Shown piece by piece: positions 1 to 7,184 of a stretch of DNA of 7,184 nt. Source of the stretch: a virus. Lineage: Duplodnaviria; Heunggongvirae; Uroviricota; Caudoviricetes. A program made the position numbers and the translations under genes. Position 1 is the first letter of the stretch. Every line of letters starts with the position of its first letter. Location of the stretch: the IMG/VR virus record IMGVR_UViG_2617270940_000007, positions 1 through 7,184 of that record; one strand, given 5' to 3'. The notes beneath the pieces are model-generated. The model worked only from the letters and a program-made list of their open reading frames with translations. It was not told the origin of the DNA and did no database searches.

Positions 1-65
1 AACCAATATCACTTAAATAAGTGATAGTCTTAATACTAGTTTTTAGACTAGTCATTGGAGAGCAG

Positions 66-431
66 ATGATTGATGTCTTAGGACCGGAGAAACGCAGACG
101 GCGTACTACACAGGAAAAGATCGCTATTGTTCAGCAGAGTTTTGAACCGGGAATGACGGTCTCCCTTGTTGCCCGGCAACACGGTGTGGCAGCCAGCCAG
201 TTATTTCTCTGGCGCAAGCAATACCAGGAGGGAAGTCTTACTGCTGTGGCCGCAGGAGAGCAGGTCGTTCCTGCCTCTGAACTTGCTGCTGCCATGAAGC
301 AGATTAAAGAACTCCAGCGCCTGCTCGGCAAAAAAACGATGGAAAATGAACTCCTTAAAGAAGCCGTTGAATACGGGCGTGCAAAAAAGTGGATAGCGCA
401 CGCGCCCTTATTGCCCGGGGATGGGGAGTAA
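66..431 (+). CDS. insC: IS2 transposase OrfA (InsC), 121 aa, helix-turn-helix DNA-binding subunit
   Basis: ORF-track protein [40 protein letters not shown]... matches IS2 InsC as I recall it; chosen start is the ATG at 66 rather than the ORF-track upstream extension at 21. Confidence 0.9.
383..389 (+). other. Programmed -1 ribosomal frameshift motif A_AAA_AAG of IS2 (orfA to orfB)
   Basis: Heptamer aaaaaag at 383-389 in the insC frame (A-K-K-W) exactly where the insD frame opens; A6G slippery sites are the established mechanism in IS3-family elements. Confidence 0.75.
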
Positions 432-1294
432 GCTTAGTCAGCCGTTGTCTCCGGGTGTCGCGTGCGCAGTTGCACGTAATTCTCAGACGAACCGATGACT
501 GGAAAGATGGTCGCCGCAGCCGTCACTCAGATGATACGGATGTGCTTCTCCGTATACACCATGTTATCGGAGAGCTGCCCACGTATGGTTATCGTCGGGT
601 ATGGGCGCTGCTTCGCAGACAGGCCGAACTTGATGGTATGCCTGCGATCAATGCCAAACGTGTTTACCGGATCATGCGCCAGAATGCGCTGTTGCTTGAG
701 CGAAAACCCGCTGTACCGCCATCGAAACGGGCACATACTGGCAAAGTGGCCGTGAAAGAAAGCAATCAACGATGGTGCTCTGACGGGTTCGAGTTCCGCT
801 GTGATAACGGAGAAAAACTGCGAGTCACGTTCGCGCTGGACTGCTGTGACCGTGAGGCACTGCACTGGGCAGTCACTACGGGCGGCTTCGACAGTGAAAC
901 AGTACAGGACGTAATGCTGGGAGCGGTGGAACGCCGCTTCGGCAACGAGCTTCCGGCGTCTCCAGTAGAGTGGCTGACGGATAATGGTTCATGCTACCGG
1001 GCTAATGAAACACGGCAGTTTGCCCGGATGTTGGGGCTTGAACCGAAGAACACGGCGGTGCGGAGTCCGGAGAGTAACGGCATAGCAGAGAGCTTCGTGA
1101 AAACGATAAAGCGTGACTACATCAGTATCATGCCTAAACCAGACGGGTTAACGGCAGCAAAGAACCTTGCAGAGGCGTTCGAGCATTATAACGAATGGCA
1201 TCCGCATAGTGCACTGGGTTATCGCTCGCCACGGGAATATCTGCGGCAGCAGGCCAGTAATGGGTTAAGTGATAACAGGTGTCTGGAAATATAG
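389..1294 (+). CDS. insD: IS2 transposase OrfB (InsD), DDE catalytic domain; expressed as InsCD fusion by -1 frameshift
   Basis: 301-aa ORF in the -1 frame relative to insC, overlapping its 3' end; GTG start at 389 lies inside the slippery heptamer; stop TAG at 1292-1294 inside the right inverted repeat. Confidence 0.9.
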
Positions 1295-1305
1295 GGGCAA
1301 ATCCA
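1265..1305. repeat. IS2 right terminal inverted repeat (IRR)
   Basis: Terminal ~41 bp ending ...tggaaatataggggcaaatcca; the matching left repeat lies outside the window, so pairing cannot be verified here. Confidence 0.6.
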
Positions 1306-2925: not shown

Positions 2926-2991
2926 CTCTGTAGCCGTAGGGAAGAACCACCTTTAGATAATTCATGTGCCTGAGCAATATGCTTTGTAGCC

Positions 2992-3037
2992 GTTTTTACA
3001 CTGGTATTATTTACGCCATTGAGAAAACAATTTGTTT
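2992..3037 (+). promoter_or_regulatory. Promoter module C: extended -10 (TGgTATTAT) plus AAACAA-t-TTGTTT palindrome in the 5' UTR
   Basis: gccgtttttacactggtattatttacgccattgagaaaacaatttgtttacgg; homologous to module B over ~50 bp; precedes RBS ggag and ATG 3049. Confidence 0.5.
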
Positions 3038-3048
3038 ACGGAGTAGTG

Positions 3049-4515: not shown

Positions 4516-4520
4516 TTATT

Positions 4521-4544
4521 AAGGCCACCAGCATTGGTGGTCTT
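4521..4544. repeat. Hairpin repeat copy 1 (aaggccacca-gcat-tggtggtctt) carrying a Chi octamer on the minus strand
   Basis: 10-bp arms with one G:T position, 4-nt loop; flanked by ttaaatgac; near-identical element at 4992-5015 with inverted loop; ccaccagc (complement of Chi GCTGGTGG) at 4525-4532. Confidence 0.6.
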
Positions 4545-4650
4545 AAATGACTTTTAATAACCGAAGGTTAGTTTGAAACCTGGCTATCAACTTCCAGAAC
4601 CTTTCTTGTGTATTCAGCCTGTATTAACTTCTTTTATGTCTTATCTACAC

Positions 4651-4686
4651 TGCGATAATTACACCAACAAGAAAACAATATGTTTA
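4651..4686 (+). promoter_or_regulatory. Promoter module D: extended -10 (TGcGATAAT) plus AAACA-ata-TGTTT palindrome in the 5' UTR
   Basis: tgcgataattacaccaacaagaaaacaatatgtttacgc; homologous to modules A and E; followed by RBS gagga (4693-4697) and ATG 4705. Confidence 0.5.
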
Positions 4687-4986: not shown

Positions 4987-4991
4987 AGAGT

Positions 4992-5015
4992 AAGGCCACC
5001 AATGCTGGTGGCCTT
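4992..5015. repeat. Hairpin repeat copy 2 (aaggccacca-atgc-tggtggcctt) carrying a Chi octamer on the plus strand
   Basis: Perfect 10-bp arms; loop atgc is the reverse complement of the copy-1 loop gcat; GCTGGTGG at 5004-5011; followed by ttaaatgac as in copy 1. Confidence 0.6.
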
Positions 5016-5116
5016 AAATGACCATCCTGTTTTCTGCAGGCTAAAAACACCAACCTCTTACCTCCAGGCAACCGACAAACCCACCTGTTCCCGTCCGGCT
5101 ACCGCAACTTTCCACT

Positions 5117-5170
5117 TTGACGCCTTATTCGTACAACGATAATTAACACAAACAAGAAAACAATTTGTTA
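5117..5170 (+). promoter_or_regulatory. Promoter module E: TTGACG -35-like, cGATAAT -10, then AAACAA-t-TTGTTA palindrome in the 5' UTR
   Basis: ttgacgccttattcgtacaacgataattaacacaaacaagaaaacaatttgttatttacg; homologous to modules A and D; RBS aagga (5179-5183) 7 nt before ATG 5191. Confidence 0.5.
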
Positions 5171-5676: not shown

Positions 5677-5706
5677 AGAAGAGGGCCAGAAACGGCCCTT
5701 TCTCTA
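5677..5706 (+). terminator. Rho-independent terminator (agggcc-agaaac-ggccct + tttctct)
   Basis: GC-rich stem 4 nt after the stop codon, followed by a T-rich tract. Confidence 0.6.
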
Positions 5707-5716
5707 TAGCCACCAG

Positions 5717-5900
5717 CTGCCGCAGGGAAATTTTCAGAAACGGCGAGGAACGCATTCATGAGCCGAAGGGAAACGACCATGAAATTTTCTGGAAACGGCG
5801 GGGGGCGCCTTTATGTAGAAAACTGAGCGGGAGAAACCCGGAATCGCGCCAGAAATTGCGTAGCGGCGCTGGGGCAGCGCTGGTGGGGTTTCAGCCCCTG
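5717..5900. repeat. Second GC-rich repeat block (GGGAAA / GAAACGG units), homologous to the 1680-1830 array
   Basis: gccgcagggaaa...ttttcagaaacggcg matches gccgcagggaaaaggctggaggttttcagggaaacggtg in array 1, as if with a ~10-bp deletion; shared gggccatccag motif (1677-1687 and ~5892-5902); Chi octamers at both edges (5710-5717 minus strand, 5879-5886 plus strand). Confidence 0.45.
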
Positions 5901-6088
5901 GGCCATCCAGATAGCTTTCGCTATGTGATTATGTGAATCCGTGGGTAAATCACTGTAAGCGCGTACACGTTGCCCAACGTGGCAATCATATGCGAGCGGA
6001 TACAAAACAACACAAAGAGCCGATCCGCGCCGACAAATAAATGCGGATCACATAGCAAGACTAAAAGCCAATGATTAACCATACTCTA

Positions 6089-6109
6089 TAGCGCAATATA
6101 ACGCGTTTT
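6089..6109. repeat. Hairpin (taacgcg-ttttaag-cgcgtta)
   Basis: Perfect 7-bp inverted repeat in an AT-rich intergenic region; member of a local family of GCGC-stem hairpins. Confidence 0.4.
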
Positions 6110-6216
6110 AAGCGCGTTAATGTGTTAAGTAATGGGTATGTACTGACAAGGATATAAAAGCGCGTCTATGGCGTTATTTTGGTGCTTATTTTTATGTTGT
6201 TGGAGCGAGTTAAAGA

Positions 6217-6246
6217 CAATAAAAAACGCGCCAATGATGGCGCGTT
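6217..6246 (-). terminator. Hairpin (aacgcgcc-aatgat-ggcgcgtt) followed by a T-run on the minus strand; second of two tandem minus-strand terminators
   Basis: Perfect 8-bp stem; on the minus strand the stem is followed directly by TTTTTT (plus-strand aaaaaa at 6221-6226). Confidence 0.5.
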
Positions 6247-6265
6247 ATGGTGGGAGTATTGGAAA

Positions 6266-6290
6266 CGAAAAAAGCGCCCATAGTGGGCGC
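6266..6290 (-). terminator. Rho-independent terminator of the 76-aa minus-strand gene (gcgccca-tag-tgggcgc + TTTTTT)
   Basis: Perfect 7-bp stem 6274-6290, followed on the minus strand by six T; lies 7 nt past the stop codon (6297-6299) of the 6297..6527 gene; the same 17-bp palindrome recurs at 6547-6563. Confidence 0.7.
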
Positions 6291-6296
6291 TCGATT

Positions 6297-6527
6297 TTAT
6301 TTGTGTAAACTAATTTTGAATCCCATTTCTACAAACGCTTTTAACATTAAAAATATATCAGCGTCATTCACGTCTGCTTTTTTTCGCTCCTGGTCGTTCA
6401 ATAAGTCAATTTTGCGCGTTGTTTCATTTATAAACTCGACTGCGCGCCCAGCGATCCCAGCGATCCCAGCGATGCGATTAACATAATATTCATTATGGAC
6501 GTTAACGCCAGCGATAAGAACAAACAT
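6297..6527 (-). CDS. Hypothetical small protein, 76 aa, containing an in-frame (IAG)x3 tandem repeat
   Basis: Minus-strand ORF with strong SD aaggag 7 nt before the ATG; bracketed by two identical 17-bp hairpins (6274-6290 and 6547-6563); terminator downstream. No recognisable family. Confidence 0.55.
   Translation of the reverse strand: MFVLIAGVNVHNEYYVNRIAGIAGIAGRAVEFINETTRKIDLLNDQERKKADVNDADIFLMLKAFVEMGFKISLHK
6447..6473. repeat. Perfect 9-bp tandem repeat (cccagcgat)x3 inside the 76-aa gene
   Basis: Three head-to-tail copies; on the coding (minus) strand atcgctggg x3 encodes Ile-Ala-Gly x3, so copy-number change would preserve frame. Confidence 0.8.
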
Positions 6528-6546
6528 GATTAAGCTCCTTAAAACT

Positions 6547-6563
6547 AGCGCCCATAGTGGGCG
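6547..6563. repeat. Second copy of the 17-bp palindrome gcgcccatagtgggcgc, between the two minus-strand genes
   Basis: Identical to 6274-6290; sits between the stop of the upstream minus-strand fragment (6578) and the SD/ATG (6527) of the 76-aa gene. Confidence 0.6.
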
Positions 6564-6577
6564 CTATATCCATCTAA

Positions 6578-6837
6578 TTACGCTTTGAAAGCATCAGCCA
6601 GATAGTTATAAAAATCATTTTTAACGAAGCGATATTGCTGTGATCCGTTTTTCGCTGCACCCATTCCTTTGATTTTTTCGACCAGTCCCAGACGTTCGCA
6701 AAGATTGATAAGCTGGTTGGCTTGAGTGTATCCTGCGTCTAATTTTATTTCGTTGGCTTTTTTCGCTTCATTCATTAAATCGAAAACAGCGCCATTGGTG
6801 AACGTGTCGATCTCGTCGTTAATCATATCGATTAATG
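6578..6837 (-). pseudogene. 3' fragment of a gene truncated at its 5' end by IS1 insertion; hypothetical protein, tentatively phage antirepressor-like C-terminal region
   Basis: Minus-strand frame stays open from the ORF-track Met (6826) up to the IS1 boundary (6837) with no stop, so the ORF runs into the IS; the antirepressor resemblance is an impression from memory only. Confidence 0.45.
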
Positions 6838-6892
6838 GGTGATGCTGCCAACTTACTGATTTAGTGTATGATGGTGTTTTTGAGGTGCTCCA

Positions 6893-7168
6893 GTGGCTTC
6901 TGTTTCTATCAGCTGTCCCTCCTGTTCAGCTACTGACGGGGTGGTGCGTAACGGCAAAAGCACTGCCGGACATCAGCGCTATCTCTGCTCTCATTGCCGT
7001 AAAACATGGCAACTACAGTTCACTTACACCGCCTCTCAGCCCGGTACGCACCAGAAAATCATTGATATGGCCATGAATGGCGTTGGATGCCGGGCAACTG
7101 CCCGCATTATGGGCGTTGGCCTCAACACGATTTTACGTCACTTAAAAAACTCAGGCCGCAGTCGGTAA
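6893..7168 (+). CDS. insA: IS1 InsA (transposition repressor / N-terminal part of the InsAB' transposase), 91 aa
   Basis: [91 protein letters not shown]; GTG start at 6893; zinc-finger-like CxxC...CxxC motif. Confidence 0.92.
7144..7150 (+). other. IS1 A6C -1 frameshift motif (insA to insB', gives InsAB' transposase)
   Basis: aaaaaac near the 3' end of insA, the established IS1 frameshift position; the insB' frame continues beyond the window. Confidence 0.7.
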
Positions 7169-7184
7169 CCTCGCGCATACAACC

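Follow-up and report, generated by a model that had tools for sequence, protein, structure and literature searches.

The stretch of DNA analysed here (hereafter the window) comprises 7,184 nt of the IMG/VR virus record IMGVR_UViG_2617270940_000007 and carries near its right end a minus-strand gene block in which a small gene, A1, encoding a protein of 76 amino acids (aa), is flanked on both sides by the same GC-rich hairpin. In the direction of transcription, the remnant of a gene for a 216-aa protein is followed by an internal copy of this hairpin, designated HP1 (AGCGCCCA-loop-TGGGCGCT), then by A1, by a terminal HP1 copy with a T6 run, by a second hairpin at 6225-6246, designated HP2, with a T-rich tail, and by what look like decayed hairpin units (Table 1). 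On the opposite side of HP2, a non-coding stretch of 620 bp faces the end of a convergent 160-aa gene having its own terminator at about 5683-5700.

Bases 5900-6837 of the window are 98-100% identical to E. coli plasmids of about 110 kb and 81-92% identical to the phage-plasmids Cyrano, CMS-2020a and SSU5 and to Klebsiella relatives. Given the phage genes that adjoin the locus in the matching records (helicase, ParB-like proteins, terminase, tail genes and repA), the window is, judging from these matches, part of an SSU5/pHCM2/pMT1-type phage-plasmid with IS2 and IS1 insertions. Similarity to the relatives stops at 6837 and the IS1 match begins at 6838. The 216-aa gene is intact in relatives (651 bp in loci L001 and L002) and also uninterrupted in the 100%-identical plasmid pYUXYEH3934-1, unlike the IS1-cut copy of the window. 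In the latter, IS1 divides the minus-strand gene block from its native upstream region, and as the upstream part of the operon is thereby removed, expression of A1 is uncertain here.

Table 1. Features of the hairpin locus and of the two ends of the window.
Feature	Position	Strand	Remark
IS2-like element	~1-1300		at the other window end from IS1
Weak palindrome TAACGCG-ttttaag-CGCGTTA	6099-6119		T-tract absent on both strands
Degenerate palindrome	6159-6175		probably a decayed hairpin unit
HP2, AACGCGCCA-atga-TGGCGCGTT (minus-strand loop tcat)	6225-6246	-	predicted backup terminator
HP1, terminal copy	6273-6291	-	followed by T6 (plus-strand A-run 6268-6273); predicted operon-end intrinsic terminator
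Gene A1, 76 aa (PHROG 1585)	6297-6527	-	one of two slot families; HP1 on both sides
Ribosome-binding site AAGGAG of A1 (plus strand ctcctt)	6535-6540	-	read from sequence
HP1, internal copy, identical 19-mer, stem extendable to 6546-6566	6547-6565	-	without proper U-tract
216-aa gene, 3' part (PHROG 1513)	6578-6837	-	truncated by IS1; always precedes HP1
IS1, left end and insA	6838-7184	+	open reading frame (ORF); 99-100% identity to IS1 of phage P1

Both HP1 copies consist of the identical 19-mer AGCGCCCATAGTGGGCGCT (AGCGCCCA-tag-TGGGCGCT; 0.00 occurrences expected from 200 shuffles) and bracket A1 exactly as described in an earlier note made on this DNA from the sequence alone, where the core 17-mer had been placed at 6274-6290 and 6547-6563, right to within one base. 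The more general pattern GCGCC-N3-9-GGCGC has three matches in the window versus 0.12 expected, a number never reached in the shuffles, and the third match (6228-6243) lies within HP2. The internal HP1 is found 12 nt past the stop codon of the 216-aa gene (6578-6580) and 6 nt ahead of the ribosome-binding site of A1, the distance from the hairpin to the A1 start codon (ATG, 6527) being spanned by GTTTTAAGGAGCTTAATC. At the other end of A1, only 5 nt separate the stop codon (6297-6299) from the terminal HP1, and HP2 sits 46 nt further in the direction of transcription, with a spacer of about 20 nt.

When folded as minus-strand RNA, the hairpins at 6273-6291, 6225-6246 and 6547-6565 reach -15.5, -15.7 and -18.1 kcal/mol, respectively, with z-scores between -4.5 and -5.4 (-4.5 for the terminal HP1 and -5.4 for HP2). 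Stem and loop dimensions are those of intrinsic terminators, with 8-9 bp and a 3-nt loop in HP1 and 9 bp and a 4-nt loop in HP2. A consensus scan gives terminator-like calls on the minus strand at 6292-6272 and 6246-6225, with T6 after each stem, and HP2 continues into the T-rich TTTTATTG. Scoring of the T-tracts by a d'Aubenton-Carafa-type procedure resulted in minus-strand values of 3.7-4.2 for the terminal HP1 and 4.2-5.1 for HP2. Terminal HP1 and HP2 are thereby predicted as tandem intrinsic terminators of the minus-strand operon, in agreement with the two consecutive strong terminators that the earlier note had proposed. The strong insulation that it saw between the minus-strand genes and the plus-strand array would, if present, be directional: minus-strand transcripts would be stopped, but the plus-strand tail is poor (T-score 0.9). 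The idea that the repeated copies are terminators also has to be restricted, since the copy upstream of A1 lacks a U-tract (tail GTTTTAAGG, T-score of 1.9 versus 3.7-5.1) and received no terminator-like call in the consensus scan. The internal HP1 is thus no terminator but a stem-loop between two cistrons, and internal copies in relatives show T-scores of 0.06-3.1, most of them being without an adequate U-tract.

A promoter-like site was not detected at or beside any of the hairpins in a scan, nor by eye upstream of A1, and no evidence for an origin, partition or regulatory-region role was found in the hairpin cluster, repA being located elsewhere in the replicon. A literature search turned up neither an account of these hairpins nor 3'-end data for SSU5-like elements. 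RNA-seq of an LF82 lysogen carrying phage Cyrano places CYRAN_112 and CYRAN_113, homologues of A1 and of the 216-aa gene, at background level (PMC9928086, S1 table), whereas the convergent CYRAN_111, corresponding to the 160-aa gene, is about five-fold above background in the same per-gene counts (PMC9928086, S1 table). With the operon silent and the convergent gene expressed in the lysogen, the terminators would therefore matter mainly once the operon is on, by keeping it from antisense transcription of genes that are active in the plasmid state.

The hairpin family had been thought to comprise five members. This holds for the three strong hairpins, but the other two are weak and decayed, and the outermost one lies at 6099-6119 and not at 6089-6109 as given before. 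The 6159-6175 palindrome folds on the minus strand with -2 kcal/mol and a z-score of +0.07, no better than shuffled sequences, and the same is true for the minus strand at 6099-6119 (z -0.7; plus strand z -2.4). Both match the strong hairpins only in the right arm and flank. As SSU5 additionally possesses an intact AAACGCG...CGCGTTT hairpin where the window has the 6159 palindrome, the two have the appearance of decayed units from one and the same series; the 6099-6119 palindrome is kept in E. coli-type relatives.

For establishing the distribution of HP1, two surveys are available. The first one, an IMG/VR scan baited with the exact 17-mer and hence prone to ascertainment, returned 103 stretches, of which about 90 are homologous SSU5-like loci. 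The roughly dozen matches outside such loci are about what a rough chance estimate gives for a 17-mer, assuming about 10^11 bases. Within a replicon the sequence is confined, too: the complete 108.7-kb relative pNT1F34-108k has it three times, only at this locus and in a single orientation, and the other hairpins of this replicon have unrelated stems. In the second survey, loci were chosen by homology to the neighbouring 216-aa protein alone (L126-L210). Here, in 83 of the 84 usable loci, the 216-aa gene is followed by GCGCCCA-NNN-TGGGCGC at a distance of 16-26 nt from its stop codon. Amino-acid identity across these loci ranges from 96% to 61%, and a Yersinia pestis 108-kb contig, Kluyvera and Buttiauxella are among them. 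The absence of the palindromes beside a retained flanking gene, named in the earlier note as counter-evidence to its proposal, is consequently not what is seen. In the sole exception, L136 (2160-2500), point changes affect both HP1 copies, internal and terminal, together with HP2, which could be either true decay or due to a low-quality assembly. Relatives at about 48% identity, found via the 17-mer and therefore subject to ascertainment, have exact and slightly damaged copies side by side. A scan of species-representative genomes gave only 5 loci.

Among 26 distinct terminal regions, seven core pairs of HP1 as well as the following T-tract are invariant, with variation in the loop and in the HP1-HP2 spacer. 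The HP1 core is unchanged in about 140 copies, and seven of the eight stem pairs never vary; a double change at the outermost pair was noticed by eye in L064. One-sided changes on the sense strand are G-U wobbles (one in HP1 and four in HP2), and a double change from A-U to G-C as well as several mismatches occur in HP2 in addition. A compensatory change, from AGGGCC/GGCCCT to AGGGGC/GCCCCT, is seen in these genomes in the terminator of the 160-aa gene.

The sequence between the outer hairpin copies varies among relatives. This slot contains none, one or two small genes from two unrelated families, namely A1 and its 75-aa paralogue A2 (about 50% identical, with a AAGGAGCTTAATCATG block common to the A1 and A2 copies) and gene B (67 aa, PHROG 6145), which fills the slot in SSU5 and Klebsiella elements in place of A1. 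The architectures seen, with H for the hairpin, are H, H-B-H, H-A1-H, H-A2-H, H-A2-H-A1-H, H-B-A1-H and H-B-A2-H, and the gene order is invariably B before A2 before A1. pNT1F34-108k, for example, has A2-HP1-A1 with three hairpins. Hairpin copies are found at the outer borders in every architecture and at all internal junctions except that between B and an A gene, where a T7 run is present instead. In L028, L050 and L074, the B-A1 junction consists of TAA-TTTTTTT-AAGGAG only, and it looks from this sequence as if the palindrome had been excised precisely and the T-tract left behind. Comparison of L035 and L007 demonstrates that the empty form equals the left flank, one hairpin and the right flank of the filled form, the latter having one added module of ribosome-binding site, gene and hairpin. 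The slot contents differ on backbones that are just 1.6-4% apart, and the upstream flank often changes along with the cargo (e.g., ttagacggatat versus ttaattgaatat).

Gene-free forms exist as well. Distant relatives have head-to-tail hairpin arrays with units of 44-47 nt, and the hairpin plus a 25-nt spacer is repeated in tandem at a 44-nt period with no gene between in L066 (three copies) and L032 (two copies). L038 and L077 carry a further exact HP1 copy at the HP2 position. The bracketing of A1 in the window is, on this comparison of sequences, one of the states of a polymorphic array, namely of a gene slot of variable content with hairpin copies as its boundaries, which the earlier note had missed. 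Its description of the hairpin as a locally amplified palindromic unit is nevertheless apt, in view of the tandem arrays in distant relatives and of a 17-mer confined to this locus in the 108.7-kb relative.

Searches for the function of the cargo were not informative. For the 76-aa, 75-aa, 67-aa and 216-aa proteins and the 173-aa regulator, no match was obtained in Pfam, NCBIfam and PADLOC, PHROGs has only the function-unknown families 1585, 6145 and 1513, and a profile of the 216-aa family found nothing among Protein Data Bank (PDB) sequences. An AlphaFold2 model of the 76-aa protein (13 homologues) shows a mean predicted local distance difference test (pLDDT) value of 43.6, and homologues occur only in SSU5-like elements of Enterobacterales and carry no informative names. 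Inside A1, a 9-bp tandem repeat, GCGATCCCA, at 6442-6473 encodes (IAG)n. The homologues are 70, 73, 76 or 79 aa long, and a difference of one 9-bp unit is seen between loci whose backbones are identical.

In contrast to the stems, the hairpin loops change frequently, in many lineages by exact inversion. The loop of HP2 is aatgat in the window versus atcatt in pNT1F34-108k and Cyrano, and aacaat in SSU5 versus attgtt in Klebsiella phage p4727. Counting in 79 distinct gene-sampled loci gave 114 CTA and 17 TAG loops for HP1, the rarer HP1 loops likewise occurring with their own reverse complements (TCA/TGA, TTA/TAA and CAA/TTG), and for HP2 20 TTGT versus 8 ACAA and 12 ATGA versus 7 TCAT. Inversion is the parsimonious explanation, as going from CTA to TAG by point mutation needs three changes. 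Moreover, in pairs of loci diverged by at most 1% over a backbone of about 985 nt, most loop differences are exact inversions; one pair shows 2 substitutions in 985 nt and one loop flip, and flips are found even between backbones 0.2% apart. The rate of inversion is comparable to a few substitutions per kilobase. In the gene-sampled set, the orientation of HP1 is strongly skewed toward CTA and that of HP2 nearer balance, which hints at HP1 flipping less often or having a preferred orientation.

Flipping hairpins, of which three types were found, have stems of 8-12 bp and loops of 3-4 nt, and the terminator of the 160-aa gene with its 6-bp stem never flips. The third type is represented by two paralogous plus-strand hairpins of the window, at 4519-4546 and 4991-5016, which read GGCCACCA-gcat-TGGTGG(T)CC and GGCCACCA-atgc-TGGTGGCC, respectively, and are an exact loop inversion of each other. 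That these unrelated stems of the same element flip as well suggests a general cause based on replication, and the loop flips would fit intrastrand template switching at long perfect stems. Exact reverse-complementing of a loop between perfect inverted repeats occurs in the minute hairpin-loop inversions of non-coding chloroplast DNA and in the template-switch mutations at quasipalindromes of E. coli, for which Kelchner and Wendel (in 1996) and Ripley and Lovett, respectively, are said to be the sources. The present cases are alike in that a short loop is exactly reverse-complemented and in that this recurs independently in close lineages; they are unlike them in affecting terminators of phage-plasmids, and three hairpin types.

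From all these data, it appears fairly probable that HP1 and HP2 form an operon-end terminator with a backup and that the repeated HP1 copies serve as short direct repeats through which gene modules are gained and lost. HP1 would end the minus-strand operon of SSU5-type phage-plasmids (regulator and further genes up to the 216-aa gene, then the small genes), and HP2, 44-47 nt beyond, would act as the backup, both together keeping the operon from antisense run into the plus-strand gene array. Being present in one to three exact copies, HP1 may function as direct repeats of 19-25 bp between which modules of ribosome-binding site, small gene and hairpin would be duplicated, deleted or exchanged by homologous or slipped recombination, and this would be the reason for finding the same hairpin on both sides of A1. 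The internal copy, having lost its U-tract, is probably read through and may be a partial attenuator and/or a protector of the 3' end of the upstream mRNA, while the perfect stems would make the DNA prone to intrastrand template switching and thus to exact inversion of the loops. The sequence anatomy, predicted stability, conservation, variation in architecture and loop inversions are shown by the data; termination, attenuation and the mechanisms of recombination and template switching we infer.

Several points weigh against this proposal, beginning with termination, which is itself a prediction. The covariation score is reached by 99 of 500 shuffles, the stems hardly varying. Then, HP1 is conserved more strictly than a terminator generically needs and also more strictly than the two neighbouring terminator-like hairpins, since the terminator of the 160-aa gene shows a compensatory change and HP2 has broken pairs. 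The B-A junction has no hairpin, the slot is filled by only two gene families, and breakpoints at conserved hairpins would also result from recombination in flanking genes or from differential loss from one ancestral B-A2-A1 array. Along these lines, the hairpins might be ordinary per-gene terminators, with gene and terminator duplicated once, the architectures being due to flanking-gene recombination and differential loss and the hairpins marking the breakpoints merely as islands of identity. We regard this account as unlikely, although the clear terminator anatomy, the fixed order B, A2, A1 of just two cargo families and an upstream flank often varying together with the cargo would all suit it. 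Empty and filled forms differing by exactly one repeat-flanked module, as well as gene-free hairpin arrays with a period of 44 nt, are not expected from it. Furthermore, the internal copies are the same as the terminal one although the A1 and A2 paralogues separated by them are only about 50% identical, and they stay so despite the loss of the U-tract.

The HP1 stem could be invariant because very high stability is required of it, because recombination between copies or elements homogenises it, or because a factor recognises its sequence. In the last case, the 17-bp dyad GCGCCCA-NNN-TGGGCGC would be a specific site for a protein of the element, either as an operator-like site on double-stranded DNA or as an RNA stem-loop for an antiterminator or for a translational or stability factor, with the always-adjacent 216-aa protein and the upstream regulator as candidates. 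Recognition of an exact sequence would account for a core stem unchanged in all these copies while neighbour identity ranges from 96 to 61%, only the central 3 nt varying and flipping, whereas the adjoining ordinary terminator covaries and HP2 tolerates mismatches; the loop skew of 114:17, not shared by HP2, would fit as well. In addition, dimeric helix-turn-helix proteins typically bind sites of the size and symmetry of this dyad. Still, we consider a binding site distinctly improbable, as no promoter-like site exists at or near any copy, the T-tract behind the terminal copy, for which an operator would have no need, equals the stem in conservation, HP2 shares the layout but has a different stem, and the adjacent proteins have no recognisable DNA- or RNA-binding domain. 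Quite doubtful, too, is the broader reading in which the frozen dyad would be a specifically recognised DNA or RNA hairpin site, bound or processed by an element protein, and the locus a miniature hairpin-bounded gene-exchange slot; if it were true, the frequent loop inversions would be the footprint of hairpin extrusion or processing in vivo. Finally, a dedicated cassette-exchange or hairpin-processing system, in which a site-specific or HUH-type enzyme would act on folded single strands, capture and excise the small genes as cassettes and leave loop flips as by-products of cleavage and rejoining, might be invoked for the identical folded sites bounding the gene slots, the fast cargo turnover and the high loop inversion rate, but is very unlikely indeed, considering that no recombinase or nuclease gene adjoins the locus (in relatives, no integrase is found within 8 kb and the only one of the replicon is about 50 kb away), that the short perfect palindrome lacks all the asymmetric features by which attC or REP (repetitive extragenic palindromic) sites are marked, that the cargo repertoire is tiny and that loops also flip in the unrelated GGCCACCA stems.

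As an operon-end terminator with a backup, HP1 and HP2 resemble tandem intrinsic terminators between convergent genes, having GC-rich stems of 8-9 bp, loops of 3-4 nt and an immediate T6 and standing one behind the other at a distance of 46 nt, past the last gene and opposite a convergent gene set. Unlike in ordinary tandem terminators, HP1 is reused without a U-tract upstream of the last gene, its core is frozen across the element family and the activity is here predicted. With respect to the repeated copies, the closest counterparts are the promoter-early stem-loops (PeSLs) of T4-type phages, repeated cassettes of promoter and stem-loop upstream of small orphan genes (Arbiol et al. 2010, PMC2839356; Comeau et al. 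2014, PMC4122927), between which recombination leads to indels, replacements and mini-circles. PeSLs contain a strong sigma-70 promoter and are dispersed at about 50 per genome, and both their terminator and promoter activities have been shown experimentally (PMC2839356; PMC4122927). HP1 has in common with them that it lies ahead of small, function-unknown genes of a variable region and that its repeats border insertions, deletions and replacements. Unlike PeSLs, however, it is without a promoter, is present in one to three copies at one locus with two cargo families and is known here from sequence; lacking promoter and dispersal, HP1 is not a PeSL.

Phage morons, as reportedly described by Juhala and co-workers in 2000, are extra genes inserted with their own terminator between conserved genes. 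They are typically expressed from the prophage. The slot genes are similar in being small accessory genes present or absent between conserved neighbours and ending each in a terminator hairpin, but no promoter of their own was found here and they are silent in the lysogen in the Cyrano data set. The internal HP1, in turn, has some likeness to the REP sequences and bacterial interspersed mosaic elements (BIMEs), intercistronic stem-loops of enterobacterial operons said to have been treated by Newbury and co-workers in 1987, as it is a stable GC-rich intercistronic stem-loop without U-tract that could keep 3' exonucleases off the upstream mRNA. REPs are imperfect, about 35 nt long, dispersed over the chromosome in hundreds of copies and linked to RAYT transposases. 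The 19-mer, unlike REP/BIME, is perfect, restricted to a single locus and without the conserved GTAG-type head, and an identity with REP/BIME was rejected for these reasons. Likewise, an attC site or gene cassette was rejected on features, a 19-nt perfect hairpin contrasting with an imperfect site of 57-141 nt with extrahelical bases, accompanied by an intI integrase and attI beside the array (attC features were compared, no attC model was used). The identity with a curated RNA family was also rejected: in a search of the whole window against Rfam 15 with permissive filters, all matches are below the gathering threshold, the best ones over the hairpins reaching 19-23 bits versus thresholds of 38-50, with E-values of 0.5-0.85.

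Phage-plasmids of the SSU5/pHCM2/pMT1 type, which occur commonly in E. coli, Klebsiella, Salmonella and Yersinia, have non-coding signals that are still practically uncharacterised. The locus offers a ready-made, predictedly strong terminator pair and, with the exact 17-mer after a conserved gene, a family-wide landmark. It would be a small and clean natural case of terminator hairpins delimiting accessory-gene gain and loss in a temperate phage, extending the PeSL idea past T4-type phages, and it is a natural read-out of palindrome-driven loop inversion. Current understanding is not overturned by this; two features seem worth recording, the frequently flipping loops and the unchanging stem, and the part left unexplained is why the sequence of the HP1 stem never changes.

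Elsewhere in the window, a conserved element of about 65 nt (...CTGGTATTGTTTACGCAATTCAGAAAACAACATGTTTA...) is found ahead of each small plus-strand ORF, at 2107-2170, 2486-2551, 2977-3042, 4623-4686 and 5115-5169. This plus-strand array, in which the 65-nt element is combined with per-gene terminator hairpins, looks more PeSL-like than the minus-strand hairpins. A promoter-plus-stem-loop layout is also present in an unrelated 78-kb viral contig (L017, 2149-2202), where a TGcTATAAT box shortly ahead of an ORF has a hairpin on each side (ACTGCCCA-tag-TGGGCAGT and GCGCCCA-tag-TGGGCGC), both with the core CCCATAGTGGG.

The small hydrophobic minus-strand ORF at 5921-6082 was rejected as a conserved gene, its stretch being replaced by unrelated sequence in close relatives. 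GGGAAA/GAAACGG-type motif repeats occur in two non-coding stretches, at about 1690-1830 and at 5723-5815, the latter sitting in the convergent intergenic region just past the hairpins. Chi octamers are dense, with 6 in the 7.2-kb window (2013, 2374, 4525, 5004, 5710 and 5879) and 32 in the 108.7-kb relative, where about 3 are expected by chance. The flip between the two GGCCACCA hairpins turns CCACCAGC (4525) into the Chi octamer GCTGGTGG (5004), and in Klebsiella-type and distant relatives (L004-L006, L009, L010 and L066) Chi overlaps the 3' arm of HP1 (GGGCGCTGGTGG), which is the case three times in the tandem array of L066.

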